Source of the DNA: a virus
Direction: 5' to 3' (one strand)
Length of the DNA stretch: 64,000 nucleotides
Virus record (IMG/VR): IMGVR_UViG_3300044510_000078
The position numbers and the translations under genes are program-made. Under the pieces are notes generated by a model, which had not been told where the DNA came from, ran no database searches, and saw nothing but the letters and a program-made list of their open reading frames with translations. Positions 23,101 through 55,084 of the stretch are shown here, piece after piece. How positions within the stretch are numbered: position 1 is the first letter of the stretch; every line of letters begins with the position of its first letter.

Positions 23101-26100
23101 TCTCTTTTCTTTTTGCTACCATTTTCGCTTCTGCTAATTGTCTTTGACTTTCTGCATTGTTAAAATCTGCGCGAGTAACTGATGCTGCTCTGGCTTGTAA
23201 AGCTGCATGGCGCTCATCTTTAGCTTTATGAAAGGCTCCCCTACTTTCTATAACTTTTTTATTTAACATTTCTAAACTGTCTTTTAATTTTTGAGTGCCA
23301 TCAAGTAGCCCTTTTACGTTCCCTAAAGAATTGACAAACATAGTCAAACCAAACAAACCAGACGCTCCAACGCCCCCAATTAACCCATCATCTGCGAAAT
23401 TCGGAATAAAACCTTTTGCCCTTCCAGCATTTCTTGGGTCAAGACCCTTGCTTAAATAACGATTTATTCCTTGATATCCACCAATGGGTTCGTCCCTTTT
23501 ATTGGCGACTCCAATTCCGAGTGGATTACCAGTTGAAATTAATTTCTTATTAGAGAATGCATAAATTTGAGAATATGGGAGTCCAGATTGTTTTTTCTCT
23601 CTGTTTATCGCTTCAGAAACTCCGAAGCTTGGGATATAACCAAAACTTAAAGATGGAACATTTTTTATTCCAGCAATTTGAGCAAGAGTAAACCTATGAT
23701 TTCCGTCGGAAATTTCTCTATGATTTTCTGGAAAATCTCGCACGGAAATAGGATTCTTTTTTAAAAATTGATAAAGCTTTTTTTTGTTTGTTTTAGAAGA
23801 AAATAATTCTCCAATGCCAGATTTTGTAATCTCACCATCATAATCAAAGCCTATATAAGATAACAAGTTTTTCAAACCTTCAGTATGTGGACGATTAGCT
23901 TGAGATAGTGTTCCTCCAGACTCAAGGAGCTTTTTTATATTAAAAACTTTTGAAAAACTAGGAATAAATCCACGAGAAAAAGGAATAAACAAAGAGCCAG
24001 ATAATCCCCTCGTCTTAAATAAATTACCGTCTCCTTCAGCAAATGGAGCCTTGATTCCAGTAAATTTTTGGGCTCTTAAAATATTAGTTAATTCGCGGCC
24101 CGCCAGTTGGATAAGTTGTAATTGTTCCTCGCCAGAAGCATTTTTAATTTTTGCTGCCAGACCTTTTGGTAACATATGTTCGTATTTTTTATATAAACGA
24201 ACAATATCAGAGTATTTCCCTAGTTCAAGAATTTTATCTGTCTCAGACAGTTTTTGAGAAATGACATTTTTGTTATAAAGTTTGGCGATTTTTTCATTAT
24301 CAGTAAAATTACCTTGTCCTATGACGGCGACCAATTTATTAGCGACTCCAATAGAATTTCTTCCCAGATTTTCAGGAAGAGTTGGGCGACCAGAGCGAGT
24401 TCCTCTAAAAACTGTTGGGCCGCTTGTATCAGGGGTAAAACCACCCGCCAAACTTAATAACCCTTGATTATGGCCGTATTTTTTCGCAAACTTTTTGGCG
24501 GACTTAACGAATTGTTCCATATACTGTGGGTCCGATTCTTTAACGCCTTTCTTCGCTAAAACCTCTTTCAGCCAACGGCTTTGAAAGACGTTTCTTCCCT
24601 TGAAGATTAAATCTTGAGCAAAATTTGGAATATAGCCCAAAGATTTCATTATTCCTCCACGATGGGAGTCGGCGTGGATTAGCGTAGCAGTAATTTCAGA
24701 TTTACCTAACCTAGCAATTGCTTGGATATTTGCAATGGCGTCGTCATTTAAGTGATATTCGCCGCCCTGCTTTTCTTGTAGTCTTTTTAATAATAGGGCT
24801 TTTTTTTGTGCTGAATTTAATTTTGTATAACCGGGAGAATTTTTCCCTCCAGTATTTTTAATACGACCAATAGAGTTTATTCTAAGGTCATTAAACATAT
24901 CTCCAACGCCGATTACCTTCTTAGGGAATAGACCAAGTTTAGTAAGACGATTAACAATTGCGGCCCTGTTTTCTTTTGAGCTTCTTGCTGTTAGGACTTC
25001 TACTTGTTTTCCAATCAAGCCCTCTCCATGAGGTGTTAGTTTAGAGCTAGGATGAAATATAGATTTTTCAGGAGTAAATGTGTCCGCATAGCCGACTTCT
25101 GGCCCATAGGTTAAAAGAGTTTCGTCCAAGTCCTGAAATACTCTTTGAGCAAAATTCGGGATATGACCCAAAGAAGCTAACCCAATTCTAAAATTTGTAT
25201 AGTTTCCATAGGCTCCTGCATTTTCTGAACTTTTCTCGAAAGATTTTGTATTGAAGCCATGTTTATCAAGAAAGCTCCTTACGAATTTTATACTGCCAAA
25301 TTGCGCCCTGCTATTTAATTCTTCGTCGGCGTTGAAACTCGGCATATCAATACGGATTTGCTTGTAGCCCATTTTCTTGAGCATACCCATATTCACTTTG
25401 AAAGCTTGATAAGCGTCTTTTGCGTTTCTAATGGTTCTTAGGTCTATATAAGCTGGCCTGTTAGCGGCACTTGTCTCTCTTGAACCGAACTTTGTTTGTC
25501 CGTAAACGGCTTTGAGCCCAGAGACTAACTTGGAGTTTATTTTTGTTCCAAAGTCTGCGGTTAGCTTTGTAGAATAAGAGTATGCGCTAACTCCTCTGTT
25601 TGCTATGCCTCCACCAGCTTGAAAAAACATACTACCTAAGCTTTGGTCAATTCCAGATTCTACATTTGACAAATTAGGATTTGTATATGAACGAACTATA
25701 TTTGGGCGGCGCTGCGCTTGTCTGATAAAATTAGATAGCTCATCTGCACCTAAAGTTCCCCTGCGGCCTATTGTTGGAACTCTCACTCCTAATTTAGATG
25801 CTGCGTATAAGAACAACTCGTCCGATAAGCCAATTCCTTCTTTTAATTTTTCGAGAATACTTTGTCCATTTGGCAAATTAGCACAGGCTTGTGTTACTTT
25901 TTCTATAGTTTTTTGAGAAGCGAAATTAGGGATATAACCGCTTGCTGCGAGCATTGGCGCTCTTGAAGATTTATTTAACAAACTAAGACTCGATACTCCC
26001 AGTCTGTCTTTTAGAATTTTAGCCGCCATGCTTTTTCTTGCGTCGTCAGAGTCGGAAGATTTGAACTCGGCTTTTCTTCCAATAGGCAAAGGAAGACCTA

Positions 26101-28558
26101 ATGGACTTTTAAAAATCTTTGATAGTTGAGCGGGGATAGCCGCTATATCAAAATCCCCCCCGCTTGTAGTTCCGGCCACTTTTTCTCCAAATGCCAATCT
26201 CATCCCTGACTCGAAAACACCACCAACAACTGACTGGACCGCACCGAGAAGTCCCTTAGACTCGTTCATAGCTCTATGCATGGCTTTTGAAGCCGTAGCT
26301 TGGGATATGGCGGGACCAAAAGTGCCAGCAAATCCAGCAACTTGATTTATTAAAAATTCATTAATATTTTTATTTAAATCAATAGGAGGATATACCGAAT
26401 CTGGACTAAATCCAAATACCCCGAATGGTAATAAATGGCCACCAAGCCTTTTGATTCTCCTTCCTTGAATTGGGATTCGAGGTTTTGAATAAGAAAGCAA
26501 AGAATAATCGGAAACACTTAATGTCCTTATCGCCTCTGGAATATTTACTGATGATTTAGATAAATCTTTCTCTGTTTGTTTTTCTTTCGTGCTTACGTAT
26601 CCAGCTTGCGCTGCCTGTTCTGGTGTTATTTTTCCAATTCTTATTTGATGAGGAATTTGAAATTGATTAAATGTTTGTCCATTAATAGTATAAACATCTT
26701 TCGCAAAATTAGGAACCCACCCCCTCATGTATTTAGGAATAACCATCGAATCCCCACTACGAGTAGGCATACCCATCGCTCTAAATTGAGCGCCGGTGAT
26801 TTCCTTTTCGTGATTATTCATTATGAATGGGCGACCACCAATTGTTCCTTTACCCCATTGTGCCCTGACAGAAGAAGGAGCGCCCAATCTTCTAGCCGAA
26901 GCTTCTTCTATTGCAAAAGCTGGAACGTGACCAGCGGCAGAAGTTTTAGGAGCGCCAAATAAATTTGTTACCGAAGTTCTAACTCCAGACTTAACCATTT
27001 GTAGAGCTATATCCTGCGCGACTTTTGCCTGAAAAGCTAAAAGAGAATTTTCATCTCTTATACTCTGTAGAATTCTTTGATGCGCCTGTTCTACTGTCAC
27101 AGTTCCTCGATTTATTTCTTTGAGAATTTCTGGATTCTTCTGAAGATAAAGAAGGACTTGTTGTTGTATTAATTGATAATCTTTTGCGGATTGATTGATT
27201 CCCATGAATTCTCTAAAAGAATCGCCAGCAAATCTTGTCAATTTTTCAAAAAGCTTCAACACTGTAAAAGTCAACAATTGGACGCCGGGACCGCTCAATA
27301 ATTGCCCAAAAGATTTTAGAAATCCTTGAAAGATTTTGTCTCCAATTCCTTCTCCAATGGCAGAGTCTCCTATATTTTTCGCTAAATCTCCAAATGTATC
27401 CAAACCCCCTTTAAGGGTCGGAGAAAGGGTAATATTTCCCACGTTTGCCGCTGCTCTTGTAAAGTTATTTAATGTTTGAGTGAGTTTGGCGGAAATTGTT
27501 TGATTTAACTTATTATTTCTGTCTATCGCGTCATCAACTGTATTATTGGCGGTTTTAAGAGCTGAATCGTAAACGCTTACTCCATTGCCTAAGTCTTGCA
27601 GAACAGCTTTCAAAATGTTAATTTGATAAACCCCACCAACAGTTTCAGCAATTGAAGACCTTTGAGAACCGCTTAGATTGTCATATTGTCTAGCTAGACT
27701 TTTTAGAACATCAATTAACGGCAGCGCATTTCCAGAAGCGTCTTTAGTAGCTATTCCAACTTCTTGTAATTGAGAAATCACCTCTGGACGTTGCAAACGA
27801 GTAAAAATAGTCTTAAAAGAGTTACCAATAACAGCACCACCGCGAGCCGTAGTCTGTTGCGCTGTAGTAATTAAGGCAATAGTTTCATTTAGCGAAATGT
27901 TCGCTTCACTGGCCGAACTACCCACGCGTTTTATACCTTCCGCTAAATCTCCAGCGCTTACAGAAAATCTAGCGTCAACAGTTGCCAATCTATTAACAAG
28001 TTCGATAGCTGTTAAGGACTCTGTATTAAAAGAGTTAAGTGCGGCAGTAATAGAAGCAACGGCATCTGCATAATCAACGCCAGATAATCTACTTAAAATC
28101 AAAGAAGCCCTAGTCCTTTCCAATGTTTCAGCAGCAGACAAGCCCTGTCTCGAAAATTCTTGAGCAGCTTTCGCCGCGTTCCCAAATGATGTAGCGGTAT
28201 TGTTAGCTACTTCAAAAAGCCCAGTAGAGAATCTACTTAGTTCTTTCTGTGACAAATTAAGAATGGCATTGATGTCTGAAAGACTTTTTTCTACTTCAAT
28301 TGTAGAACCAAGCAACTTATCAAATGCAATTTTTACAGCGGCAATTGCTCCAGCAGAAGCTCCGAACGCGATAACACGAGCGTTAGACGCTTCAAGAGAT
28401 TTTGAGAACTCAGAGGCTTTTCCAGTGATTTTTCCTAGAGGCTGGTCAATTCCAGCGACATTCAATGAGCCAAGTCTCCTTGGCCTATTTAAAGCCCTAT
28501 CTATGACCTGTTCCAGCGGCCTTGGGTCACCACCCACTGTAAGAATAATATCTGGCAT
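20123..28558 (-). CDS. Tail tape measure protein (TP901-like N-terminal core) with internal cargo domains
   Basis: 2811 aa; Ala/Gly-rich helical N-terminus (VEKSLSDINAIL...FGNAAKAAQEFSRQGL...), C-terminal coiled coils; follows tail tube and chaperone genes. Confidence 0.9.
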   Translation of the reverse strand: MPDIILTVGGDPRPLEQVIDRALNRPRRLGSLNVAGIDQPLGKITGKASEFSKSLEASNARVIAFGASAGAIAAVKIAFDKLLGSTIEVEKSLSDINAILNLSQKELSRFSTGLFEVANNTATSFGNAAKAAQEFSRQGLSAAETLERTRASLILSRLSGVDYADAVASITAALNSFNTESLTAIELVNRLATVDARFSVSAGDLAEGIKRVGSSASEANISLNETIALITTAQQTTARGGAVIGNSFKTIFTRLQRPEVISQLQEVGIATKDASGNALPLIDVLKSLARQYDNLSGSQRSSIAETVGGVYQINILKAVLQDLGNGVSVYDSALKTANNTVDDAIDRNNKLNQTISAKLTQTLNNFTRAAANVGNITLSPTLKGGLDTFGDLAKNIGDSAIGEGIGDKIFQGFLKSFGQLLSGPGVQLLTFTVLKLFEKLTRFAGDSFREFMGINQSAKDYQLIQQQVLLYLQKNPEILKEINRGTVTVEQAHQRILQSIRDENSLLAFQAKVAQDIALQMVKSGVRTSVTNLFGAPKTSAAGHVPAFAIEEASARRLGAPSSVRAQWGKGTIGGRPFIMNNHEKEITGAQFRAMGMPTRSGDSMVIPKYMRGWVPNFAKDVYTINGQTFNQFQIPHQIRIGKITPEQAAQAGYVSTKEKQTEKDLSKSSVNIPEAIRTLSVSDYSLLSYSKPRIPIQGRRIKRLGGHLLPFGVFGFSPDSVYPPIDLNKNINEFLINQVAGFAGTFGPAISQATASKAMHRAMNESKGLLGAVQSVVGGVFESGMRLAFGEKVAGTTSGGDFDIAAIPAQLSKIFKSPLGLPLPIGRKAEFKSSDSDDARKSMAAKILKDRLGVSSLSLLNKSSRAPMLAASGYIPNFASQKTIEKVTQACANLPNGQSILEKLKEGIGLSDELFLYAASKLGVRVPTIGRRGTLGADELSNFIRQAQRRPNIVRSYTNPNLSNVESGIDQSLGSMFFQAGGGIANRGVSAYSYSTKLTADFGTKINSKLVSGLKAVYGQTKFGSRETSAANRPAYIDLRTIRNAKDAYQAFKVNMGMLKKMGYKQIRIDMPSFNADEELNSRAQFGSIKFVRSFLDKHGFNTKSFEKSSENAGAYGNYTNFRIGLASLGHIPNFAQRVFQDLDETLLTYGPEVGYADTFTPEKSIFHPSSKLTPHGEGLIGKQVEVLTARSSKENRAAIVNRLTKLGLFPKKVIGVGDMFNDLRINSIGRIKNTGGKNSPGYTKLNSAQKKALLLKRLQEKQGGEYHLNDDAIANIQAIARLGKSEITATLIHADSHRGGIMKSLGYIPNFAQDLIFKGRNVFQSRWLKEVLAKKGVKESDPQYMEQFVKSAKKFAKKYGHNQGLLSLAGGFTPDTSGPTVFRGTRSGRPTLPENLGRNSIGVANKLVAVIGQGNFTDNEKIAKLYNKNVISQKLSETDKILELGKYSDIVRLYKKYEHMLPKGLAAKIKNASGEEQLQLIQLAGRELTNILRAQKFTGIKAPFAEGDGNLFKTRGLSGSLFIPFSRGFIPSFSKVFNIKKLLESGGTLSQANRPHTEGLKNLLSYIGFDYDGEITKSGIGELFSSKTNKKKLYQFLKKNPISVRDFPENHREISDGNHRFTLAQIAGIKNVPSLSFGYIPSFGVSEAINREKKQSGLPYSQIYAFSNKKLISTGNPLGIGVANKRDEPIGGYQGINRYLSKGLDPRNAGRAKGFIPNFADDGLIGGVGASGLFGLTMFVNSLGNVKGLLDGTQKLKDSLEMLNKKVIESRGAFHKAKDERHAALQARAASVTRADFNNAESQRQLAEAKMVAKRKEIVETRTQVRDVEKSLSRKGAVEKWKSYATGGGFAASSAVSMASSLMDNTNPLKERTQELGNAMMTSAQVMMALPGPIGILAGLTIGIINVYEIYQKSLRDATYKIKTLESKIETDKKISQEGDKYLQLLSKQNEILSSDNADAESLNNVKRKLSATLRDMITLGGAGLAKKLQDTTSEKEKVKVIEEFREKSDKERSQFETASKYAEIYKNNKNIFFDSGRGRSAAELNVNSYAKGVLLSMDEEQKGKLDSFTSDSLNFETEGQRTESLKKLESIFGKAHAIFLSQLGGNDPLQFSILTSAIKALAITARNVNESLANETEEIKKNRIKKSLVNAEQELLTKAIKDYRSSIKAGFLRKIDSSLTDRRIGIDYASSFTGERFVREFETKETAINNIGQMFKKTLSEAVSSLDIESETKTKRKNPKTGKEEEVSINTDKTHITDIVSNMFQGIMKRGNTTEIMNSTNIMKRSLDDLMRGNQISKEERIYANKILEKINNDEMRDEFRKAADAIKISNFSYDKNQRLAFRGGASSFSNPDEARELNTNIARGASSFILGNNDIRSGRGALKLGQNLQKMLGTDYLGGKSGAGLRQIAAVGLEKSLNKDIRTQVLSLERALSRTKDPQKRGAILGAIEELMSAKSKTGLIAKEQINKELKSDKMPDDISSIAKGIQVLPSAIANELEKVLSPKFAKQQLDTNIADALARFREIANESQGLKTNFTDLRTAAAQTVALWNAHNKSLENQIKLINEIKSAALRGGENKPNPKLKEAENFANSLPEDDGKREFSKMDYARIAAAHSSLGGMIISSLFPSFLPEGVPTPADVAYQKMTGTEKEIKSINALRGVALGRAGLTEEDNIALQRLEKRRDILYRKVNVSSNSTERDSLNTQLKEINGYIKEILNKNRKSPSTNDSGNPTPSTNDSGNPNLSAVQPDTKLFLDIGFNLTGDEALVSLLSEKFEDNKEEFGEMIYNQLYSKFSSKFGEPTPATVTA
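20323..20382 (-). repeat. Perfect 30-bp tandem duplication in the tape measure C-terminus (PSTNDSGNP x2)
   Basis: taggattaccactgtcattggtgctcggag at 20323-20352 and 20353-20382. Confidence 0.9.
23392..26940 (-). repeat. Nine dispersed GxxP(N/S/A)F(A) peptide motifs within the tape measure
   Basis: GHVPAFA (~26912), GWVPNFA (~26702), GYIPNFA (~25920), GHIPNFA (~25148), GYIPNFA (~24618), degenerate GFTPDTS (~24422), GFIPSFS (~23951), GYIPSFG (~23622), GFIPNFA (~23392). Confidence 0.85.
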
Positions 28559-35500: not shown

Positions 35501-36619
35501 TTAGACTACGATACCTGCAACTGCGCGAGCGTCCAAGCAAACACGACCTTCTTCAAGGAATCCCCAGAAGCCAGCCTTGTCAACCCTCGAAAGATTGAAC
35601 TGGTCATCTGGCATAACTCTGAATGTCCCACCGCTATCCGCTTGACGAGCCACTGGGCGCACAAACGCTCCACGAGAGTTGTCAATACCGACAAGAATTT
35701 CGTCCGTGCCTGCTCCAGCCCATGAACCGCCACTTGAACCGGGAACGCTATTTCCAGCCGTAAATGAATGGAAAAGAACGTTGTATTTCTTACCAATACC
35801 AAGTTCAACGAGTTGATTGATATTCACACCGAAGATACCTTGCATACCAGCATTCTTCCATACTTCCATCTTGAGTCCTTCTGGAAGGTTTTGGGCCGTA
35901 TTAGCCGCGCTTGTATCAACCGGATTGAATGCAAAGGCGCGAATCTGAGCCTTAATTTCTGGACTTACATACAAGTCTGTTGGGCCATTGCTATAAACCC
36001 CATCTGGAGTATTACCAGAATAAGATTCATTAAGACGCACTTCACGAACCATCAAATTGTTCAAATCGGCAAGATTAAAACTATTTGCTGTGCCAGCGGC
36101 AATTACGTGCTTGAGAGCCGCGCCGCCCTTTGGAGTTGTTGAAGCTTCTGCGAGAGCCTTTAGAATAACCGCCCAACCGTTCTTTTCTTGTTTGATAAGA
36201 ACTTCGTTAAGCAAACGTTCTACAGCTTTGCTGACAACATCAAGACGATGTTTGCGAGCATAACGCTTATTGAAGGAAACCGCGCTATCGAGACGATAGG
36301 TTGCGATTTTCATTTCCTTAACGCCTTCGATTTGGTTGGTTGGTAAACCACCAGCCATGTTTTGACTCCAAACGGTTACATAACCATCTTGTTCGCCATA
36401 ATACAAATCAAGAGGATAACTTGGGGAGTCATCTTCGTCAAATTCAACATTTGAGAAGATGGAACTTACAGTTCCCTTGGTCATAAGAACCTTTTGAATC
36501 ACCGGGCCAAGCCACGCGGCGAGCGCTTCTTGAGCTTCCATTGATGCTTGAAGATTTCTTGAACCGATTGCTTCGACTAGAGCGATTTGCTCTGGTGTTT
36601 CTTTTAGCTTGAAATTCAT
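35501..36619 (-). CDS. Major capsid protein
   Basis: 372 aa downstream of protease/scaffold and decoration genes; HK97-fold-like organisation; strong leader and terminator. Confidence 0.8.
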   Translation of the reverse strand: MNFKLKETPEQIALVEAIGSRNLQASMEAQEALAAWLGPVIQKVLMTKGTVSSIFSNVEFDEDDSPSYPLDLYYGEQDGYVTVWSQNMAGGLPTNQIEGVKEMKIATYRLDSAVSFNKRYARKHRLDVVSKAVERLLNEVLIKQEKNGWAVILKALAEASTTPKGGAALKHVIAAGTANSFNLADLNNLMVREVRLNESYSGNTPDGVYSNGPTDLYVSPEIKAQIRAFAFNPVDTSAANTAQNLPEGLKMEVWKNAGMQGIFGVNINQLVELGIGKKYNVLFHSFTAGNSVPGSSGGSWAGAGTDEILVGIDNSRGAFVRPVARQADSGGTFRVMPDDQFNLSRVDKAGFWGFLEEGRVCLDARAVAGIVV

Positions 36620-36658: not shown

Positions 36659-37198
36659 TTAGATGTCAAGTTTTACAGTGACGTAGCCGAGACTGTCTTT
36701 CGCGCTTAGGGCTTGTCCGACCTTTACCGCGCCATTACGCTGCGTAGAATCAATTAGTCCGTTGTCGCCCACATATAAAGAAGCTCCTGCGGTCACTGAC
36801 CCAGTAAATCCGCTATACATGAATGTTCCGCGAGTTACGAGAGGCACAACTTGACCGCTTAATACCGCCTCCATTTCGGCTGCTTTGCGTGGATTAAACT
36901 TCAAAAGTTCTCCGTTTTCGTCAGTTTCCTTAACGTCGAAGAGCATCATTCCCACTACAGCGTCGCCCGTGCCAGCTACCGCAACTTTATAAGGCGTGCC
37001 GTATCTTTGTGAAACTGTATTGTTATATCCTGCTCCAACGTTTCCTAGCATTTCAAGTGAATCTTGGTCAGTTGGCAAAAAGCCAGAGCCGACAATCTTT
37101 ACTAGAGTGCCTTTGTTGGTTGGGATGCTGCCTGAAAAAGAAAATAAATTGATTACATCTCTTTCGTCATAGTCTCTGAATGGTCTTAGTGTTGGCAT
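36659..37198 (-). CDS. Capsid decoration/cement protein
   Basis: 179-aa G/V-rich beta protein between scaffold and capsid genes (VLSGQVVPLVTRG...GASLYVGDNG). Confidence 0.65.
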   Translation of the reverse strand: MPTLRPFRDYDERDVINLFSFSGSIPTNKGTLVKIVGSGFLPTDQDSLEMLGNVGAGYNNTVSQRYGTPYKVAVAGTGDAVVGMMLFDVKETDENGELLKFNPRKAAEMEAVLSGQVVPLVTRGTFMYSGFTGSVTAGASLYVGDNGLIDSTQRNGAVKVGQALSAKDSLGYVTVKLDI

Positions 37199-37232
37199 AA
37201 TTTTTCCTGTTTTTGTTAAATTGTTTTATTGA

Positions 37233-38669
37233 TTACTTAATTTCAAATCCGTCATCTTTTAGGGCGTCTTTCCATTTTTCTGCTTTGTTTTTGTCTGCTA
37301 CTGAAGAGTTGGCAAGGGCGGCTTTCTTTTTCTCTGCATTGTCCATTGCGTTATCTAATGCATCAGACGCTTTTGAGTCTTTTTTAGCGTTTTTCTTGGC
37401 CTCCTCATCATCCGCTGCTTTCTTAGCGTCTTCATCAGTCTTTTTCTTTGCTGCCTTTGATAGAGGCTTTAGGAAAACTTCCATATTCTTTTTCCATGAA
37501 GCAAAGTCTTCATCTTTGTCTAAGACTTTGATTTGAGAAGCCAAAACTTGACGAATTTCATCTGAAAGTTCATATTCTGCTTCAACCGACTCCATACGAG
37601 AATTAAATTGGACCACTTTTGCGCGTTCAGCTTCTTGTTTTTCAAAGGCTTCGACCTTTTGTTTAAGAGTATTCAATTCGCCTTCGACTTTAGTTACGTT
37701 TTCTTTTGCTTTTTGGGCCGCTTCTAAAGATAGCTTATGAGCTTCTTTTTCAGATTCATATTGCTTGGAAGCTTCCTTAATTTGTTCGGCAAGGAATTCT
37801 GTTATAGCGGACGCGTTGATTTGTTTTAAAGTCTCGTCGGTAATATCTTGAACTTTAGTGATTTTCATATCTCGTCTGTTTTGATTTACATTAAAATCTT
37901 GGGATTGTGAAATATTTTTTTGAGGTAATTGTGTATTTTGAGAAGAAATTCCCTTCACCTCTGCGGCGGGAGATTCTGTTAGACCTATACCCAAAGGCAG
38001 CACTTCTCCGACTGGTTGACGATAAACTTTTTGACCATTTATCTCTCCAGAGCCTCCAAATGATTTTAAATGTTTAGATATTTCGTCACAATCTCCAAGT
38101 AGGGGAACGCAATCCTCCAAGTTCTTAGAGGAAGAGCCTGCGCTTGTGCTTACAATTTTAAAATCATCAAAACCAAGCTCCCAACTCGCGGAAATTGACT
38201 GAAAACTCTCATTAGCTGGGTCTGTAGAATCTTCTATTTTCGTCACCACGTCAGGATTTACAATTCTCCATAAAACACCGCCCAAAGTGATATTAAAGGG
38301 CTTCTTTGAATCTTTAATATCTTCAGCTTTAAGAGGTAAATCGGAACCAAATTCACTAAAACCGACATTCAAGATAACACCAATAACATTTTTTCTATTA
38401 TGTTCTATGTTAATTGGTTTATTCACAAAATAGTTTGCTATTGAAAGGGCTGTCTCAGTGTCAATTACGTCTCCATTTTTATTTATACGATTGACTACAA
38501 AGGCGTTAAATGCAATTGGCAATAAATCATAATTTTTTGACACATCAACGTCTGGAATAAAATTAGCAACATCAAGGAATGATGCCATAGCTAAGTATTT
38601 ATCTTTTTCTTCTGAAACCAATGGTCTAAGTAAAGAGCTGAACGAAATTTTAAATCTAAAATCTTTCAT
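37233..38669 (-). CDS. Prohead protease fused to coiled-coil scaffold
   Basis: NKNGD, KPINIEH..KNVIG, SASWELGF, GIGLTESPAA protease motifs; K/E/A-rich coiled-coil C-terminal half. Confidence 0.8.
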   Translation of the reverse strand: MKDFRFKISFSSLLRPLVSEEKDKYLAMASFLDVANFIPDVDVSKNYDLLPIAFNAFVVNRINKNGDVIDTETALSIANYFVNKPINIEHNRKNVIGVILNVGFSEFGSDLPLKAEDIKDSKKPFNITLGGVLWRIVNPDVVTKIEDSTDPANESFQSISASWELGFDDFKIVSTSAGSSSKNLEDCVPLLGDCDEISKHLKSFGGSGEINGQKVYRQPVGEVLPLGIGLTESPAAEVKGISSQNTQLPQKNISQSQDFNVNQNRRDMKITKVQDITDETLKQINASAITEFLAEQIKEASKQYESEKEAHKLSLEAAQKAKENVTKVEGELNTLKQKVEAFEKQEAERAKVVQFNSRMESVEAEYELSDEIRQVLASQIKVLDKDEDFASWKKNMEVFLKPLSKAAKKKTDEDAKKAADDEEAKKNAKKDSKASDALDNAMDNAEKKKAALANSSVADKNKAEKWKDALKDDGFEIK

Positions 38670-38677
38670 ATATTATA

Positions 38678-39193
38678 TTATATTAACGAATCAAGCCTTG
38701 CTAAAATTTGCTTTTTTAATTCTTGTTCGTCATCAAGATAAAGGTTTAGAAAAGTTTTACAACTATTATCTAATTTAAAAGCAACAATATCTCTTTTAGC
38801 AGAAGCAAAGTCTTCGTCTAAGATTTGGAGCCTCATTTCTGAGAGGGGTAATGAAGTTTTGTTCAGTCTTTTGGCAATACCAGTTAGATTATTTTCTATA
38901 GCTTTTAGATAAGAGTTTAGGTATGCCAATGAATACTCTAACAATGGAATAGTAGAATTTACTTCATTTTTCCAAAGCTCTTCCGCACGAATTAAAAGAG
39001 ATTTTAATTGAGCAAGACTGACCCTTTTATTGTTTTCAGAATTATGGGATTTAACCTTTGCGTCCAAGCAAGCGACAATTTTAGAAGATAATGATATTGC
39101 CGAACATTGACATTTATCTTTTAAAGTAGAACAATTCACACACAGGTCAATCTGTGACGCCTTTGTATATTCAAATTCAAAAAGATTGTTCAT
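38678..39193 (-). CDS. Hypothetical protein
   Basis: 171-aa ORF with N-terminal Cys cluster; upstream GTGTAA motif. Confidence 0.55.
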   Translation of the reverse strand: MNNLFEFEYTKASQIDLCVNCSTLKDKCQCSAISLSSKIVACLDAKVKSHNSENNKRVSLAQLKSLLIRAEELWKNEVNSTIPLLEYSLAYLNSYLKAIENNLTGIAKRLNKTSLPLSEMRLQILDEDFASAKRDIVAFKLDNSCKTFLNLYLDDEQELKKQILARLDSLI

Positions 39194-39234: not shown

Positions 39235-41958
39235 CTAATTAATGAAAACGAACTCATTCCCCAACAACAGGGTTTGCGAGTATTTTGTCCAAGCATTTAG
39301 TTTATTTTTAAAATCTTTTAAAGGCTCATTTACGAATGCTGTTCCTAACTTAATTTCTAATTCTGCTGGTAAGCGTTGATAGACGATTTTATATAGATAA
39401 ATTATTTTTTCCTTATCTGTCTTGAGAGCTTCAAAATCTTTTGAGCTTGTGATTGCTACGGAACTTTGGATAACCAAATCTCCGTTCATTAAAAACAGCG
39501 CTTGTTTAGGAACTATCGTGCTAAAACGTTTTCCAGTTGGCATTTCTGGGGTTGCCATATCAAAAGTTGTAAAAAGGTCAGGTAAACGGCCCCTATCTAT
39601 CAAACCATAAACGCTTCTTTTATACACGTCTGGACGCATCAAATCTACTGATTGTCCGCCGCCAACGAAGTCTAGCCTTCTACTAACCATCAATAAAGAG
39701 TCCCTCATTGATTCAAAATCCAATCTAATCATATTCATTTTCCAATACAGGGAATTTTCTTGGTCTTGAATTGCGTATTTTGTATTGTTTTTTGATGATT
39801 GTTGATAAGTGCTAGACATTACTATAAGTTTGTGAACATATTTCGTTGACCAGCCGTGCTTGATAAAGTCATTAGCTAACCAATTTAATAGATTCAAATG
39901 TTTAGGCTTTTCAGATTGAGTTCCAAAATCGTCAGGAGAATTGACAAGTCCCACCCCGAAATGATGTTGCCATAATCTGTTTACATAGACCCTCGAAGTT
40001 AATGGATTTTTTGGGTCTGCTATTGATTTTGCCAACTCTAATCTACCGCTGCCATTTGTATAAATATTATTTGTCGGAGAAAGGACTTCGAGAAAACGTC
40101 TTGGAACAATAGACCCACGAGAATTAGGGTCGCCCTTTATAAAAACTGGCGAATTTTGCGCCGTCGGCTTATCATAAATGGCCATTGCTCTAGGGGTAGC
40201 TGCTGGATGTGATAATTCGAGGGTGACTAATTTACCTTTTTCTCTTCTTAAATCATTGTCATATCTCATTGTCTGATTATTGTCAGACAGAAAACGAGCA
40301 AAATTTTCTCTTGTAAATTCAAGGGGTCCACTATTCTCAAAAATTATTTCATAAAATTTCTTTTCTTCGGAGTCGGAACTTTTTTGATAGCGTTTTTGAG
40401 AATCTAAAACCGCAGCTTGATACCCATTGCATACTTCTAAAAGAGTATTGGCATTTTTTGTATATCTAAAAATATATGAATGAATTGTTTTTTCATTTTC
40501 TTCTATGTATTTTTTGAATTCAACTCTAAAGTCATTCGTTATTTTAATAGCTTTAAGATATGGAGAATAAATTGACGCCTCAATTTCTTGTTTTTTCGTT
40601 GTCCTCATGGCGTCAGTCCATTTTTTAATCATTCGAGGATTTAGGGAATTAGTTCTTATAAAATCTTGCTTTCCGTCTTGCTTTACTAAATCTAGCAAAT
40701 AGTTGCCGTATAACCATTTTGAGGTATTGGTTATGAAACTTAAAAATGCCTCATTATATCTTTTGGTGATAAAATCTTCAACTTCTTTTTCTATTTTTGA
40801 TTTTTGGGCTACATAGTCTGGAAATAGATTTGGGAATCTGCTTTCTGAAATTATTGGTTTTTCTTCAGGAATTGTGCAACTGTTTAATATGCCATGCAGC
40901 GCATAGTAATCTTTAATAGTGATAGCGTCAAATTTATGGTCGTGGCATCTGGCGCAAACAACAGTTGAGCCAAGAAAACCCTTTGTGATTACATCAATTC
41001 TATCATCTATAACATCATTATTGTTGTTGGAATTTTTTCCCAGAGTCAAGAATCCAAGCGCCGCCAAAGATTTTTTGTCATTTGGTTTATATAAATCGGC
41101 AGCAAGTTGTTCTATAACAAATTCATTAAATGGTTTATCCTCATTAAAAGAAGAAATTACATAATCTCTATAAGTATAAGAATAAGTATATCTTCCTTCG
41201 GTGTTTGCTCTAATTGAACCAGAGGTGTCTGCATACCTAGCGACATCTAACCAATGTCTCGCCCATCTTTCTCCATAAAGAGGAGATTTTAGTAGTTCAT
41301 CAACAAGATTTTCGTAAGCCTTTGGAGATTTGTTTTTAACAAAAGATTCCACTTCTTCATAAGTCGGAGGAATGCCTAACAAATCAAAATATAATCTTCT
41401 AATCAAAACTTCTTTGGGGGCCGATAAAGAGGGTCGCAGATTCTTCTCTTCTAGTTCTTTTAGTATAAAATTATCAATAGGGTTACTAATCCATCTGGAT
41501 GACTTTACTTTTGGAATTTGCGCGTCTGGAACCGGTTGATATGCCCAGTGATTTTTCCTGTCTTCAACGACTGAAAAGATTAAATTCGTGCCGCTTCTTG
41601 GGTCTGGAGCGCCATTCTTAATCCATTTCTCAAAATCAGCTAAAACATAATCTGGAAGCTTTTCATTTGGAGGCATCTGCAAAGAATTATCCTTATAAGA
41701 TAAAGCTTTTAAAATTAAAGATTTACTCAAATCATTCGGGACTATGGCTGGGCCAGTATCGCCGCCCTTAATCAAACCATCCTTTGTATCTAATAAAAGC
41801 CCACCTTTTATTTTTTCAGCAGTTTTGCTGTGGCAGCGATAGCAATTAGAAGATAAAATTGGTCTAATTTTTTGCTCGAAAAAAGAATAATCTTCTTTCT
41901 GAGCGCCGAACAAATTAATACTTAAAAAGATTAAAAATGTAAATATCCATCTTGCCAT
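39235..41958 (-). CDS. Planctomycete cytochrome c / DUF1549 / DUF1553 (PSCyt-PSD1) domain protein, exported
   Basis: Signal peptide MARWIFTFLIFLSINLFGA; FFEQKIRPIL..NCYRCH; HWAYQP; YGERWARHWLDVARYADT; CARCHDHKFD; NPLTSRVYVNRLWQHHFGVGLV; RLDFESMRDSLL; PKQALFLMN. Likely start 41958. Confidence 0.93.
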   Translation of the reverse strand: MARWIFTFLIFLSINLFGAQKEDYSFFEQKIRPILSSNCYRCHSKTAEKIKGGLLLDTKDGLIKGGDTGPAIVPNDLSKSLILKALSYKDNSLQMPPNEKLPDYVLADFEKWIKNGAPDPRSGTNLIFSVVEDRKNHWAYQPVPDAQIPKVKSSRWISNPIDNFILKELEEKNLRPSLSAPKEVLIRRLYFDLLGIPPTYEEVESFVKNKSPKAYENLVDELLKSPLYGERWARHWLDVARYADTSGSIRANTEGRYTYSYTYRDYVISSFNEDKPFNEFVIEQLAADLYKPNDKKSLAALGFLTLGKNSNNNNDVIDDRIDVITKGFLGSTVVCARCHDHKFDAITIKDYYALHGILNSCTIPEEKPIISESRFPNLFPDYVAQKSKIEKEVEDFITKRYNEAFLSFITNTSKWLYGNYLLDLVKQDGKQDFIRTNSLNPRMIKKWTDAMRTTKKQEIEASIYSPYLKAIKITNDFRVEFKKYIEENEKTIHSYIFRYTKNANTLLEVCNGYQAAVLDSQKRYQKSSDSEEKKFYEIIFENSGPLEFTRENFARFLSDNNQTMRYDNDLRREKGKLVTLELSHPAATPRAMAIYDKPTAQNSPVFIKGDPNSRGSIVPRRFLEVLSPTNNIYTNGSGRLELAKSIADPKNPLTSRVYVNRLWQHHFGVGLVNSPDDFGTQSEKPKHLNLLNWLANDFIKHGWSTKYVHKLIVMSSTYQQSSKNNTKYAIQDQENSLYWKMNMIRLDFESMRDSLLMVSRRLDFVGGGQSVDLMRPDVYKRSVYGLIDRGRLPDLFTTFDMATPEMPTGKRFSTIVPKQALFLMNGDLVIQSSVAITSSKDFEALKTDKEKIIYLYKIVYQRLPAELEIKLGTAFVNEPLKDFKNKLNAWTKYSQTLLLGNEFVFIN

Positions 41959-41959
41959 A

Positions 41960-43351
41960 TTATGCGATGATGTCTTTGACAACATTGCCGTGAACGTCTG
42001 TTAGACGGAATTCGCGGCCATTGTAATTATATACAAGTTGAGTATGGTCAAATCCAAGTAGCGCTAATATTGTAGCGTGCAAGTCGTGAACGTGGACTTT
42101 ATTTTTTACAATTTTAGCTCCAAAATCGTCAGTTTGTCCATAGACAGTTCCCCCCTTTATTCCTCCACCAATTAAAACAGAGCTAAAAGCCTGACTCCAG
42201 TGGCCTCTTCCAAATCCATCTTTCCCACCCTGACCATCTCTTTGAGGAGTTCTTCCAAATTCGCCACTCATAACAATAAGAGTGCTATCAAGTAGTCCTT
42301 TTTCTTTTAAGTCTGCAAGAAGAGCGGCAATTGGCTTATCAACCTGATTCGCCGCGCTTCTTAAAGAGCGAGAAAGTCCATCGTGCGTGTCCCATCCACC
42401 CGTGAACACTTGAACAAATCTTACGCCTCTTTCTACAAGCCTTCTTGCTAGCAGCATTTGCTTGCCTTGAGCCGTGTCTCCAAATTTTTCTCTTGTTTCT
42501 TTTGACTCTTTTGAAATATCAAAGGCGTCGGTCGCTTCAGACTGCATCCTAAATGCGACTTCAAAAGATTCTAGTCTTGCTTCCAAATCGGCCTCTTTTT
42601 GTAGGTTTTGGCCATGAATAGTATTTAGTTTTTGCAGCAAATCTAATTGCTTTCTTTGTTCTTCGATGGAAACATATTGAGATTTAATATTTTCAATCAT
42701 TTTATCTACAGAATTCAAAGTCGTATTTACCGAAGTTCCTTGATAAACGCCCGGTAAGAAAGCTGAACCAAAATTTTGCGTGCCTCCAAGCGGAATCCCC
42801 CCCGGCCTTAAAGAAACAAAGGCTGGCATATTTTGATTAATTCCGCCTAATCCATAACAAACCCATGCGCCCAAACTTGGTCTTACGAATCTGGCTGACC
42901 CAGTATTCATAATCAATGTTGCTAATTCATGGGCTGGAATATCGGTGTTCATTGACCTAATAACAACAGCATCATCAATAAATTTACCAATATTTTCAAA
43001 AACTTCACTAACTTCAATGCCACTTTTACCCATCTTATTAAACTTGAATGGAGAACCACAAGCCAAGCCATTCATTCCAGAACCAAGTTGTGAACCGTCA
43101 AGTTTTATGAGTTCTGGTTTATTATCCCAAGTATCAATATGAGATTGTCCGCCTCCGAAAAAGATATGAATAACCCTCTTGGCTTTGGCAGGAAAATGTG
43201 AAGATTTTGGTGAAAGTCCGTCGGCCTGAGCAAGAAGCGGTGCAAGACCCAACATTCCCATTCCCATACCCATTGTTTGCAAAAATTCCCGGCGAGTTTT
43301 TAGAAAGTCTTTTGCAGATAATTCGTTTTGGTTGCAAAATAATTGTTTCAT
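41960..43351 (-). CDS. DUF1501 family protein with Tat signal
   Basis: TRREFL twin-arginine leader; AKAKRVIHIFFGGGQSHIDTWD; RPSLGAWV.YGLG..NQNMPAFV; LLARRLVERGVRFVQV..GGWDTH; LLDSTLIVMSGEFGRTP; VHVHDLHATILALLGFDH. Likely start 43351. Confidence 0.93.
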   Translation of the reverse strand: MKQLFCNQNELSAKDFLKTRREFLQTMGMGMGMLGLAPLLAQADGLSPKSSHFPAKAKRVIHIFFGGGQSHIDTWDNKPELIKLDGSQLGSGMNGLACGSPFKFNKMGKSGIEVSEVFENIGKFIDDAVVIRSMNTDIPAHELATLIMNTGSARFVRPSLGAWVCYGLGGINQNMPAFVSLRPGGIPLGGTQNFGSAFLPGVYQGTSVNTTLNSVDKMIENIKSQYVSIEEQRKQLDLLQKLNTIHGQNLQKEADLEARLESFEVAFRMQSEATDAFDISKESKETREKFGDTAQGKQMLLARRLVERGVRFVQVFTGGWDTHDGLSRSLRSAANQVDKPIAALLADLKEKGLLDSTLIVMSGEFGRTPQRDGQGGKDGFGRGHWSQAFSSVLIGGGIKGGTVYGQTDDFGAKIVKNKVHVHDLHATILALLGFDHTQLVYNYNGREFRLTDVHGNVVKDIIA

Positions 43352-43364
43352 ATCTTTAAAGATG

Positions 43365-43826
43365 TTACACTCCATTCAAGAAGACAAGTTCTGTGTCTTC
43401 GACGATTGGTTGAGAAATCTCAAATAAGTTATTTACTGCATCCACATCTCCAACCGGAGTTTCTCTCATCACAAAATCTGCCCCAATACCTGATGAACCA
43501 GACGAACCGCTGGTTCCAGACGTTCCATCTACTCCACTGGTTCCCGAACTGCCACTTGAACCAGACGAACCGCTAGAACCTGATGAGCCACTTGAACCAG
43601 ACGAACCGCTGGTTCCGTTTATGCCACTTGTCCCATTTACTCCAGATGAACCACTAGACCCAGAGGTTGAATCTGACCCATTAATTTTATTTGCAAGCTC
43701 AAAAATAGTTACTTTTTTATTTTTTTGGCCAGAATTGGCAGAAACATCAACAATTGGTATCAAATCTGTATCCGCCATCTCAGACGCAGAGATACTTAGA
43801 GATTTGCTTATCTTTAGACCTTGCAT
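43365..43826 (-). CDS. Ser/Gly-repeat virion protein, apparently C-terminally truncated
   Basis: N-terminal DLIPIVDVS..KNKKVTI, (SG[S/T])n run, then RETPVGDVD..NNLFEI....VFLNGV followed by a stop in mid-domain. Confidence 0.6.
   Translation of the reverse strand: MQGLKISKSLSISASEMADTDLIPIVDVSANSGQKNKKVTIFELANKINGSDSTSGSSGSSGVNGTSGINGTSGSSGSSGSSGSSGSSGSSGSSGTSGVDGTSGTSGSSGSSGIGADFVMRETPVGDVDAVNNLFEISQPIVEDTELVFLNGV
43493..43665 (-). repeat. Low-complexity SGSSGTSG coding repeats
   Basis: Recurrent gacgaaccgctggttcc / ccacttgaaccagacgaaccgct units. Confidence 0.85.
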
Positions 43827-52286: not shown

Positions 52287-54137
52287 TTAAATCATCGTGG
52301 GAACAAAGGTTTCCTGTTCTTCAACTTGCGCGTTTTGCATATCAAAATAAATTTTGGTGGCCCAGTTTCCTAGTAAAAGCGCCGTATAATTGTCTTTTCT
52401 TGCCCTGTTTTCAGTAGTTTCTCTATTTAAATGAGCTGGTAAATCAAAAGTCTGCATACCTCTAGCATTAGTTCCGACTTCAATTAAAGCGCACTCTGAT
52501 TTAGTTAAATCTATCATAGAATCCAAATGCTCAATAAAATCCCCAACTGTATTTACATCATCAATAACGCCTTTAATCAAATCGAAATTAATTCCAGAAG
52601 TGATAGCTTTATCGAAGGCCATCGCGCTGCCAGCGCTTTTCGATGCAAACCAAATTCTCTTAAAGTCAATATTTCCCTGTAAATGTTCGTTAGACTTTCT
52701 TATAAATTCATTACTACCAAATACTTGCTTAAATACAATCCTTTTGTGTTCCAGATTGTGCTGGCGTTTGGCTGTTTTTAATTCTTTGGAATAATCTGGT
52801 TCGTCTAGGCTACTCTCAAATGTCATCCATTTTAAATTTAATTTATTTTTAACAAATAATTCATGCTCATTTGCTGCGTCAATAAAGTTATAACCAGCGT
52901 TATCAATGACAATAAAAACAATATTAAAATGTGTCAACAAATAATAAAAATATCTGATATGTTCTTTTAAATCTTTACCATGTTCTCCGTAAGCGTGGAC
53001 TAGAGTTGATTGTTTATTTTCTTCGTCAAGTTCTAAGAGGGCCATACCAAAGTCGTCAGAAGTTGGGCTGTTGGAGAAGCTTGGGTCTATCGCCAAAACA
53101 TATTTTTTGTCAGGAGTTCCCCTTACTAAAGTATGTGGGCTTTGAGAATGTGGGACAGTGCAATTAAACATTTTTTTCGCAGCAAAATATCCTTCACTTC
53201 CGTCTGTAAATCTAGCACAATATTCTCTAAGGAAAACCGCATTAGAAGTGCCTCCAGTTTCAGCTTCTTTAATAATACTTTGATTTATCATGTGGGCGGG
53301 TAGCGCCTCCCAAGATAATTGGGAAATAAAATATTTTGCATTATCTTCTTTTTCTTTTGGTTTATTTATTTTGCTTATCCATTCACAATAGGTTTCGTAA
53401 AGATTTTCAAAAGTGTATGACGCAGAAGAGAGGGCAACAAATCTTGTCGTATTTTCAAAAATGATTCTGTCTTTTTCATTTAACAATCTTTCTTTTATTA
53501 AAGAGTCTTCTATATTTCTAATTCTAATTCTTTCGTCCATATCTTGTGGAGCAGTTAAGAATGGAATAAGAACCGTATCTACAATTTCTTTACTCATTAA
53601 TAAATATTCGTCAATTAACAAAACATTCGCTCGAAATCCACGAATTTTCTCTCCGTTCAATGGAATGGCAACAATAGACCCTTCGTTGATTTTTAATTCA
53701 TGCAAATCATTTCGTTTAATTTTCGCTCCTAAGACTTGAAAAAATAAAGCCGCGTCCCTTCTTTCAGATATTTCTTCAATTTTGTTAAAAATAAAACGCG
53801 AAGTTCTAAATGTTGGCCCAGCTATAAGAATTTTTGAACCGGGATAGAATATACATTGCAAAATACAAAAAACAGCAGCTATAAACGTTTTTCCACAGCC
53901 ACGACCCCAAATACACATACTATAGTTTCTATTTAACATCCCACGTAAAGTAACCTCTTGGAAAGGGGCGATTTTAATACCAGTTAATAGCTCTACAGTA
54001 AAAGTTAAATTATGACGTAAAAATTTAATCAAAGTTAGCCTAGCTTCGTTATCGCTAAGTTCTCCAACTAAAGTATTTAAATAGACTTCATTTAAATCTT
54101 CTAATTCTGTTTCGTATTTTTGAGGACACGTCCACAT
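52287..54137 (-). CDS. terL: Terminase large subunit
   Basis: Walker A IWGRGCGKT, Walker B VLLIDEY, SSAS, FLREYCARF, nuclease VLAIDPS and RKDNYTAL. Likely start 54137 (MWTCPQKY). Confidence 0.92.
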   Translation of the reverse strand: MWTCPQKYETELEDLNEVYLNTLVGELSDNEARLTLIKFLRHNLTFTVELLTGIKIAPFQEVTLRGMLNRNYSMCIWGRGCGKTFIAAVFCILQCIFYPGSKILIAGPTFRTSRFIFNKIEEISERRDAALFFQVLGAKIKRNDLHELKINEGSIVAIPLNGEKIRGFRANVLLIDEYLLMSKEIVDTVLIPFLTAPQDMDERIRIRNIEDSLIKERLLNEKDRIIFENTTRFVALSSASYTFENLYETYCEWISKINKPKEKEDNAKYFISQLSWEALPAHMINQSIIKEAETGGTSNAVFLREYCARFTDGSEGYFAAKKMFNCTVPHSQSPHTLVRGTPDKKYVLAIDPSFSNSPTSDDFGMALLELDEENKQSTLVHAYGEHGKDLKEHIRYFYYLLTHFNIVFIVIDNAGYNFIDAANEHELFVKNKLNLKWMTFESSLDEPDYSKELKTAKRQHNLEHKRIVFKQVFGSNEFIRKSNEHLQGNIDFKRIWFASKSAGSAMAFDKAITSGINFDLIKGVIDDVNTVGDFIEHLDSMIDLTKSECALIEVGTNARGMQTFDLPAHLNRETTENRARKDNYTALLLGNWATKIYFDMQNAQVEEQETFVPTMI

Positions 54138-54139
54138 AC

Positions 54140-55084
54140 TTATAATAAATTTGTATCGTATAATAGCTGTAAATCGGCTTTTTTCCATAAGCCCTTGCTT
54201 GTTAATACAATTTCAGCTATTCTTGCGGCCTCGGTTCTACCATCAACGAATAAAAATTGTATATCTTTAAATTGATAAATTAATTCTCTCATATTTCGTA
54301 GGACAAATTCGGGAGAGGCTTTTACATTAGAATATGCTGGTCTTAGGTATTTGAACCTTGCTACATTATTAAAGTCACTTTCTACGAGAATAAGCATTCC
54401 CGCGCCAACTTCTTCTGCTTTTTTTAATTCTTTTTTAAATCTTTCGAGCCCGCCGCTCATTGTCCCATAAAAATCTGCTAATGATTTTCTTTCTATAAAA
54501 CTATTTTCACAAAGCTCTTTATTATCCAAAGTATAATCTCCAAATTTAAGCGCGGCTTTAATGATTGGTAAATTATTGAAGCAGAGTGGGGCTTGTTCTC
54601 TTGTGTCTATATAAATAGAAGAATTATTTATTGCTGGACTTTTAGGTAATTCTATTTTTTTATATTTTGCGGGAACACCAATCTGTTCGCATAAATCATA
54701 ATAGCTCCCAAATAGTTCGTCGAAATAATTAATAGATGGAATAAGTAATGACCGTAATTCTACTTGACAAGGGGCGAACTTTAATTGTTTTTTTTGTATT
54801 CTTCTTTCCAGTAAATTTTTACAATATGTTTTTGCAATTTCTTTATCTTGCTTTCTAAGCCAGTAGCGCAAGTTATTTTTATTGTTAAAATCATCGTTAA
54901 AATATTGGTCTTTAGTTTTGAAAGCGATAATTTTTTTATCATGTAAATCATATCTCGGAAAGTAAGTTTGATAGTAAGAAACAATCCTATGTTTGTGGAC
55001 TCTTATATGTTTGTGTAAAGATTCTTCATTTGTAAATACCTCTTTACAAATTTGACAAACTAGAGTTGTGCATACATTATCCAT
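54140..55084 (-). CDS. C2H2 zinc-finger + ERCC4/XPF-like nuclease
   Basis: CQICKEVF..EESLHKHIRVH; IYIDTREQ, GDYTL, FIERKSLADF. Confidence 0.85.
   Translation of the reverse strand: MDNVCTTLVCQICKEVFTNEESLHKHIRVHKHRIVSYYQTYFPRYDLHDKKIIAFKTKDQYFNDDFNNKNNLRYWLRKQDKEIAKTYCKNLLERRIQKKQLKFAPCQVELRSLLIPSINYFDELFGSYYDLCEQIGVPAKYKKIELPKSPAINNSSIYIDTREQAPLCFNNLPIIKAALKFGDYTLDNKELCENSFIERKSLADFYGTMSGGLERFKKELKKAEEVGAGMLILVESDFNNVARFKYLRPAYSNVKASPEFVLRNMRELIYQFKDIQFLFVDGRTEAARIAEIVLTSKGLWKKADLQLLYDTNLL

Follow-up and report, generated by a model that had tools for sequence, protein, structure and literature searches.

Why does a phage carry, between its candidate portal and capsid genes, two genes for exported proteins of a kind familiar from bacteria of the Planctomycetes-Verrucomicrobia-Chlamydiae (PVC) group? 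The question was raised by a 64,000-nt stretch of DNA (IMG/VR virus record IMGVR_UViG_3300044510_000078; the whole stretch is referred to as the window, and coordinates are window positions), which comes from a large uncultured tailed phage from water (GC content 36.5%) and in which a first-pass annotation had singled out a DUF1501 gene and an adjacent PSCyt/DUF1549/DUF1553 gene. The pair was found to be a phage-resident, long-retained cassette under purifying selection. Judging from sequence comparisons, it is very likely functional, resident in phages and derived from a single capture from Verrucomicrobiota. The reading as a whole, that of a working phage auxiliary cassette, captured once, whose exported products scavenge nutrients by cleaving esters, was given a probability of roughly 0.6. 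The two genes and their motifs were located as follows:

41960..43375, minus strand: DUF1501 gene, open reading frame (ORF) of 471 aa (Pfam PF07394).
43223..43297, minus strand: predicted twin-arginine translocation (Tat) signal peptide of DUF1501, T27-RREFLQ...LLAQA51, with cleavage predicted before DG.
39235..41985, minus strand: PSCyt1/PSCyt2(DUF1549)/PSD1(DUF1553) gene, ORF of 916 aa (Pfam PF07635, PF07583 and PF07587).
41902..41958, minus strand: putative signal peptide of the general secretory (Sec) type in the PSCyt protein, MARWIFTFLIFLSINLFGA/QKED, by direct reading.
41830..41844, minus strand: first CxxCH motif, CYRCH, residues 48-52, in the PSCyt1 domain.
40942..40956, minus strand: second CxxCH motif, CARCH, residues 344-348, in CARCHDHKFDP of PSCyt2.

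Both ORFs were intact and lay on the minus strand within a long run of co-directional genes; the initial description of two intact genes of exported type, with Sec and Tat signals and two CxxCH motifs, was borne out by the ORFs, the Pfam matches, the leaders and the CYRCH and CARCH motifs themselves. DUF1501 was matched over profile positions 1-390 of 390 (E 3.5e-134; 448 bits vs. a cut-off of 27), and PSCyt1, PSCyt2/DUF1549 and PSD1/DUF1553 followed one another in the canonical order (E 1.3e-14, 2.3e-74 and 3.7e-75; 54.9, 250.3 and 252.9 bits vs. cut-offs of 22, 29.8 and 28.5, respectively). Translation of DUF1501 probably begins at the ATG at 43351 (M9), as in the protein database, where the gene call is of 463 aa and was mapped to a contig of 164,156 bp. 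The probable start of the PSCyt gene is the ATG at 41958 (M10), because a stop codon precedes the corresponding Met in a close relative, the IMG/VR contig 3300020193_000059 (IMGVR_UViG_3300020193_000059; L001/L002). The DUF1501 stop and the likely PSCyt start of these adjacent, co-directional genes are one base apart.

Read by eye from the translation, the N-terminus of DUF1501 (...KTRREFLQTMGMGMGMLGLAPLLAQA/DG) was a twin-arginine leader, and the RR/KR/RK motif followed by F/Y-L was kept among phage and bacterial relatives. Tat signals are common, not universal, in the DUF1501 family. Hydrophobic leaders equivalent to the Sec leader of the PSCyt protein were found in 7 of 7 phage copies. The Cys, Cys and His columns of CYRCH were invariant or nearly so (32 homologues), and in CARCHDHKFDP both Cys and both His were invariant and Asp and Pro nearly invariant (32 sequences); the CARCH motif of PSCyt2 could ligand haem or another metal. 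The Tat and Sec leaders and both CxxCH motifs were kept in the phage copies, the sole exception being contig L063, which encoded an 819-aa PSCyt homologue (L063:9387-11846) without PSCyt1 that retained PSD1 and PSCyt2 with its CARCH motif. The PSCyt1 haem domain is thus dispensable in at least one lineage. With these signals, export of both proteins to the periplasm is likely.

The earlier view that the pair had been retained for long was upheld by a second, collinear assembly, by selection and by base composition. L002 was collinear with window positions 29652-52322 (22 kb, 75-77% nucleotide identity) and had the pair and both junctions at the same place. In more distant relatives (L004, a Logan contig; L007/L008, from ENA lake metagenomes; and L062, from JGI and also present in IMG/VR) the pair stood directly before homologues of the 478-, 179- and 372-aa head genes, and DUF1501 identity to the window (62-71%) was as high as capsid identity (57-65%). 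Selection was measured between the window and L002 (20 genes compared, synonymous sites saturated). DUF1501 showed the highest amino acid identity among the 20 genes (92%; dN, the non-synonymous divergence, was 0.06), and its ratio of non-synonymous to synonymous divergence (dN/dS, ~0.02) was below that of every other gene pair for which the ratio was finite (18 of the 20, the other 2 being saturated at synonymous sites). The PSCyt gene gave 0.07-0.11, with PSCyt2 as the best-kept domain (0.05); the dN/dS check called for at the outset therefore indicated purifying selection on both genes. GC content at third codon positions (GC3) was 0.29-0.30 for the pair, 0.24-0.38 for the flanking phage genes and 0.67-0.85 for the nearest bacterial copies, in agreement with the description of the pair as AT-rich like its flanks. 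In L002 the PSCyt gene was frame-shifted by a perfect 47-nt tandem duplication (L002:11583-11676; AGATTCCCAACGCC...GAGAAAT, twice), and both halves of the broken gene were otherwise under purifying selection.

Beyond its own cluster, the best database matches to the window DUF1501 had 62-71% identity. The closest copies in named bacterial genomes (Limisphaerales, Pedosphaera and Chthoniobacter) had 53-60%, and one Limisphaerales copy at 63% lay among housekeeping genes in the same DUF1501-then-PSCyt order; the nearest cellular relatives of the pair were Verrucomicrobiota (Limisphaerales, Chthoniobacter). Near-identity to one host paralogue with relaxed selection was not observed, bacterial DUF1501 proteins being 53-63% identical and dN/dS low. 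In a DUF1501 tree of 170 rows, the five rows in the 62-92% identity set that had a phage context all fell within a clade of 66 rows (support 100), whereas the 49 rows from bacterial genomes all lay outside it, and IQ-TREE on 60 rows recovered the same split (SH-aLRT 100); set against PVC paralogues, as had been proposed, the pair belonged to a phage-specific clade and was not a recent capture. The gene neighbourhoods sampled across sub-branches of this clade were phage-like (9 of 9, with small ORFs, YopX, ThyX, dCMP deaminase, ClpP, HNH or the head module), and 4 of the nine contigs were independently listed in IMG/VR. The seven phage PSCyt proteins likewise formed a single clade (support 100) within the same Verrucomicrobiota group, and the related bacterial group shared the DUF1501-then-PSCyt order. 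The root of the trees was undetermined, and most clade members are known solely as metagenome proteins, so “virus-only” means here that no bacterial context has been found so far. Since both proteins fell into virus clades nested among Verrucomicrobiota, the simplest history is one joint capture. One contig binned as “uncultured Bifidobacterium sp.” (CAZBIC010000090.1; L010) had a pair nearly identical to the copy of a Pedosphaera parvula metagenome-assembled genome (MAG) and is almost certainly a mis-binned Verrucomicrobiota contig.

The surroundings of the pair in the window comprised the following features:

52287..54188, minus strand: large terminase subunit, TerL (PHROG 2 and 38, Pfam Terminase_6N, tblastn to annotated phage terminases).
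48547..50403, minus strand: portal-like protein (Atlas structure matches to portal clusters, TM 0.6-0.74).
43365..43826, minus strand: collagen-like ORF (Gly-Ser-Ser repeat) of 153 aa, directly upstream of the pair (Pfam Collagen, E 7e-9).
36659..39193, minus strand: three head-module genes (171, 478 and 179 aa), directly downstream of the pair.
35501..36619, minus strand: major capsid protein candidate (Atlas feature matches of 0.97-0.99 to viral capsid clusters, Mu GpT / Phage_capsid_4).
35447-35470: strong terminator hairpin after the capsid gene.
20123..28558, minus strand: tape measure of 2811 aa (PhageMin_Tail domain only at residues 117-309).

The location in a head module was supported by the portal-like and capsid-like flanks, but not by the “prohead protease” of the first-pass annotation, as the 478-aa gene (37233-38669) had no family match in profile searches. 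The portal and capsid labels are those of candidates, given on language-model and predicted-structure likeness, and a solved-structure sequence search with both proteins returned no match. The 171-, 478- and 179-aa genes may encode scaffold, protease or decoration proteins (the 179-aa protein had a weak Pfam match to Phage_cement_2), and homologues of the genes downstream of the pair also came after it in L004, L007 and L062. No terminator-like site was found from the pair until the hairpin after the capsid gene, so the pair is probably co-transcribed with the head genes. The window also encoded PhoH, a sigma-factor-like gene, an ERCC4 nuclease, collagen-like fibres and glycosyltransferase (GT) genes of the GT1-, GT2- and GT9-like types; its 64 kb showed neither an integrase nor any bacterial housekeeping gene, and a tRNA scan found no tRNA.

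The collagen-like ORF was missing in the otherwise collinear L002, where ~90 nt separated the 455-aa gene from DUF1501, and other genes occupied its site in L007 and L008; the spot upstream of DUF1501 is therefore a small indel hotspot. This ORF is a variable element outside the cassette. It was also considered as an insertion scar of the pair and rejected, L002 having the pair without the ORF.

How widely is the pair distributed among related phages? The capsid profile found more than 340 relatives in IMG/VR, and the intervals within 10 kb of the capsid gene were surveyed in the best 80 of these viral contigs (L142-L221; 54-70% capsid identity) and in 5 capsid-related bacterial-MAG contigs. 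Portal, 478-aa, 179-aa and capsid genes were conserved across the 80 and 5 contigs, and the pair was present in the portal-to-capsid interval of none of them (0 of 80 viral and 0 of 5 MAG contigs). The portal-like protein marked the upstream border of the variable slot that holds the pair in the window, its homologues adjoining the capsid block in the 80 viral contigs. In these contigs the interval between the portal gene and the 478-aa homologue varied from ~2 to 8 kb and acts as a cargo slot, and homologues of the window's 886-aa and 448-aa genes were present in only some. The five pair carriers were scattered on the capsid tree (four state changes), and in L005/L006, L063 and L064 the pair lay among small early-type genes with no structural gene nearby. 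From its patchiness in the slot and its scatter on the capsid tree, the pair is accessory, being either often lost or passed between phages, and the sister copies among early-type genes indicate that the head-module location is not essential. The pattern points to patchy spread or loss among phages after the capture.

With the DUF1501 profile, 72 IMG/VR loci were found (38-92% identity, almost all of 30-45% GC), several with two DUF1501 copies. The search for the pair in other viral contigs suggested earlier thus showed that it was not a one-off, and a PSCyt-like neighbour was present at 38 of the 72 loci. On the tree, the 72 loci grouped into at least three large clades made up of viruses only (29, 32 and 24 rows) and small ones, with 7 label changes; the clades other than that of the window are probably separate captures because they occupy separate tree branches. 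IMGVR_UViG_3300021964_010058 (L068, L071) had two DUF1501-PSCyt pairs that belong to different sub-branches, with 63% and 51% identity to the window protein, and L064 carried a second, solo DUF1501 4.6 kb downstream of its pair (L064:14059-15318). Genes near the pair in sister phages included glycosyltransferases, two sulfotransferases and methyltransferases (L004:3469-9119), a sugar epimerase and an alginate lyase (L063:5792-7728), and GT1/GT9 genes and a gene resembling adenosine 5'-phosphosulphate (APS) kinase (L064:1-1979 and 4523-4966). Neither DUF1501 nor PSCyt nor the capsid protein had a match among GenBank phage records, and the literature search found no paper joining DUF1501/DUF1553/PSCyt with phages, in keeping with the first statement that no phage example had been characterised; the lone “phage” match in the literature, which concerned a 61-aa ORF of a Pseudomonas phage with a weak CDD annotation, was discarded as irrelevant.

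What might the two proteins do? The AlphaFold2 (AF2) model of DUF1501 (predicted local distance difference test, pLDDT, 84) had as its best fold matches in VIA the PafA phosphatase (Z 20.8), NPP/ENPP phosphodiesterases (Z 19-19.6) and sulfatases (Z 17-19), with ~240-290 aligned residues at 10-16% sequence identity; comparisons with LtaS, EptA/MCR-1 and PbgA/YejM gave Z 15-17. The modelled fold is that of the alkaline-phosphatase superfamily, with a large helical insert at residues ~215-310. The window protein carried 42 of the 42 invariant columns of a 60-sequence alignment, among them D126, H141, D321, H323, E364, R367, R382, H384 and D408; S70, D73, D76 and T136 were nearly invariant. A strand and a helix bordered T136, a position that in the alkaline-phosphatase superfamily is taken by the nucleophile. 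The formylglycine motif of sulfatases (C/S-x-P-x-R) was not present in the window DUF1501, and Pfam Sulfatase (PF00884) scored 16.8 bits, under its cut-off of 25. From the invariant residues and the fold, DUF1501 may be read as a metal-dependent esterase with a Thr nucleophile.

In the AF2 model of the PSCyt protein (pLDDT 86), residues 23-120 resembled the c-type cytochrome FoxE (VIA, Z 8.1, 25% identity over 92 residues), and a further match, 5c2v_D, supported this likeness of PSCyt1. Residues ~373-588 formed a long helical hairpin, where the VIA match was non-specific. Foldseek found no PDB match to the model at E<=0.001, and the PSCyt2 and PSD1 parts had no recognisable solved relative in either Foldseek or the VIA wide search. 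A solved-structure sequence search returned no match for DUF1501 or the PSCyt protein.

Taken together, a course of events can be proposed. The pair would be transcribed together with the late head operon; DUF1501 would fold in the cytoplasm and then be exported via the host Tat system, and the PSCyt protein would be exported via Sec and receive haem from the host cytochrome c maturation system. In the periplasm, DUF1501 would act as a metal-dependent esterase, with Thr136 as the likely nucleophile and Asp/His as the likely metal ligands, and together with its haem partner it would process a phospho- or sulpho-ester substrate. For the phage, the gain would most likely be an infected cell that scavenges more phosphorus or sulphur (or sugar) for phage production. 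This specific esterase and nutrient-scavenging chemistry, drawn from predicted structures, is put forward tentatively.

Several observations weigh against this reading. Genomes like that of the donor have ~57-61% GC, ~20 points higher than the 36.5% of the phage. The break in the L002 PSCyt gene could be either a very recent real loss or an assembly error. Roles of the catalytic residues were assigned from sequence position and fold class, not from coordinates. The published roles of the PVC families are themselves hypotheses, namely electron transfer to sugars or proteins and a carbohydrate-related role (PMC3542564, PMC5615132). Genes beside the pair in sister phages point towards glycans or sulphate rather than phosphate (alginate lyase in L063, sulfotransferases in L004, APS kinase in L064), so that sulphated-glycan chemistry is a further possibility.

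The main rival is envelope remodelling or superinfection exclusion, in which the exported pair would alter a surface or periplasmic polymer (lipopolysaccharide, capsule, a sulphated glycan or incoming nucleic acid), so that later phages are blocked or lysis and release are eased. The envelope-acting LtaS, EptA/MCR-1 and PbgA/YejM (Z 15-17) and the NPP phosphodiesterases (Z 19.5) among the fold matches, the glycan-modifying genes adjoining the pair in L004, L063 and L064, and the GT1-, GT2- and GT9-like genes of the window would fit it. It was nevertheless considered unlikely: a membrane anchor of the kind found in LtaS, EptA and PbgA is lacking in DUF1501, the glycan genes were not conserved beside the pair across the clade, and the bacterial paralogues, tens per genome, often fused to carbohydrate-binding modules and beside sulfatases, fit substrate harvesting better (PMC3542564, PMC5615132).

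The position of the pair between portal and capsid genes in the window, L002, L004, L007/L008 and L062, with collagen-like and fibre-like genes in the same slot, could also suggest products that are packaged or displayed on the capsid and act on the envelope of the next host at infection. The Tat and Sec signals, however, direct both proteins out of the cytoplasm, the site of tailed-phage head assembly, sister copies occur among small genes of early type, well away from structural genes, and the slot is without the pair in the 80 related viral and 5 MAG contigs, so the pair is not a conserved virion part; a virion role was regarded as very improbable. Still less credit was given to a passenger or an artefact, that is, mis-assembled host DNA, a prophage edge or a recent capture drifting to loss. 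The broken L002 PSCyt gene and the doubtful nature of some IMG/VR “viral” contigs (e.g., L123 at 59% GC) speak for it, but both junctions were common to independent assemblies from different samples, housekeeping and integrase genes were not seen in the 64-kb window, the composition was fully phage-like, dN/dS was 0.02-0.11 with saturated synonymous divergence, and the clade was virus-only in the trees. A working auxiliary cassette for ester cleavage and nutrient supply remained the preferred reading.

Any host of the pair must supply Tat, Sec and cytochrome c maturation. A host from Verrucomicrobiota or the PVC group is plausible on the basis of the donor lineage; the claim that the pair identifies the host group therefore held for its nearest cellular relatives, which are PVC/Verrucomicrobiota, but not for the host itself, for which donor lineage is the sole basis and the GC values disagree. 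A search with the capsid protein alone gave no relative in bacterial genomes, and one with the GT9-like gene gave one uninformative contig. The five MAG contigs found with the capsid profile were labelled Thiobacillus, Flavobacteriales, Patescibacteria, Proteobacteria and Verrucomicrobiales, and a host assignment from these labels was rejected, such inconsistent taxa looking like binning noise.

The pair adds an undescribed case to the host-derived auxiliary genes of phages, although its protein families are known ones. To our knowledge, no function has been shown for the DUF1501 and PSCyt families, which were described in 2004-2012. DUF1501 and its PSCyt/PSD partners are present in tens per genome in Planctomycetes and Verrucomicrobia. 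In R. baltica, 41 copies of each PSCyt2/PSD1 domain were reported (PMC2754498). The phage pair is widespread in viral metagenomes (72 IMG/VR DUF1501 loci), yet it was not found in GenBank phages or the searched literature; its small size makes it a convenient target for biochemical work, and it may serve as a marker by which a large, uncultured family of freshwater phages could be tied to PVC-type hosts. Phages retain only what pays within a single infection. Being compact, free of added binding modules, strongly selected and carried by many uncultured phages, the pair is presumably a functional unit alone and quickly relevant to cell physiology. It is conceivable, if somewhat doubtful, that the virus-only clade represents a self-sufficient minimal PVC system, a mobile cassette among unrelated aquatic phage backbones that performs a yield-limiting periplasmic ester cleavage releasing phosphorus or sulphur in oligotrophic waters. 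If so, the clade would add a new class to the auxiliary metabolic genes of phages and open a first experimental route into one of the largest families of uncharacterised genes in Planctomycetota and Verrucomicrobiota.

Among known systems, the closest is the conserved DUF1501 + PSCyt1/PSCyt2/PSD1 gene module known from Planctomycetota, Verrucomicrobiota and Lentisphaerota (Kamneva et al. 2012, PMC3542564; He et al. 2017, PMC5615132). The window pair agrees with it in the Pfam architecture of both proteins, in the Tat signal of DUF1501 and in the partner's signal peptide and CxxCH motifs, of which there are two; its genes are likewise adjacent and co-directional, their order is that of the nearest Limisphaerales and Chthoniobacter loci, and all family-invariant residues are present. 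The window pair differs in being phage-encoded, with phage base composition and in a virus-only clade 56-63% identical to the nearest bacterial DUF1501, in the length of its PSCyt protein (916 aa vs. ~990-1190 aa in most close bacterial partners), and in having no carbohydrate-binding or Big_2 inserts. The core fold of DUF1501, with Asp/His pairs at typical metal-site positions, is shared with the PafA/NPP phosphatases-phosphodiesterases and S1 sulfatases, from which DUF1501 is set apart by its 10-16% identity, the lack of C/S-x-P-x-R and the helical insert at ~215-310.

Some auxiliary metabolic genes of phages help to acquire nutrients, pstS/phoA of cyanophages and PhoH-family genes among them. 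Like these, the pair is host-derived, under purifying selection and in a phage genome of lytic type (with a PhoH gene in the same window), and by analogy it plausibly serves the nutrient supply of the infected cell. Unlike these, it is a two-gene exported system dependent on Tat, Sec and cytochrome c maturation of the host and is absent from GenBank isolate phages. The other virus-only IMG/VR clades belong to the same DUF1501 family and to low-GC viral contigs, many with a PSCyt-type neighbour, and comprise solo or tandem DUF1501 genes sister to Chthoniobacterales and a clade of 24 members in which PSCyt lies upstream (e.g., L003). Their DUF1501 proteins share 38-56% identity with that of the window, and compared with the window pair the gene order is another or the partner is lacking.

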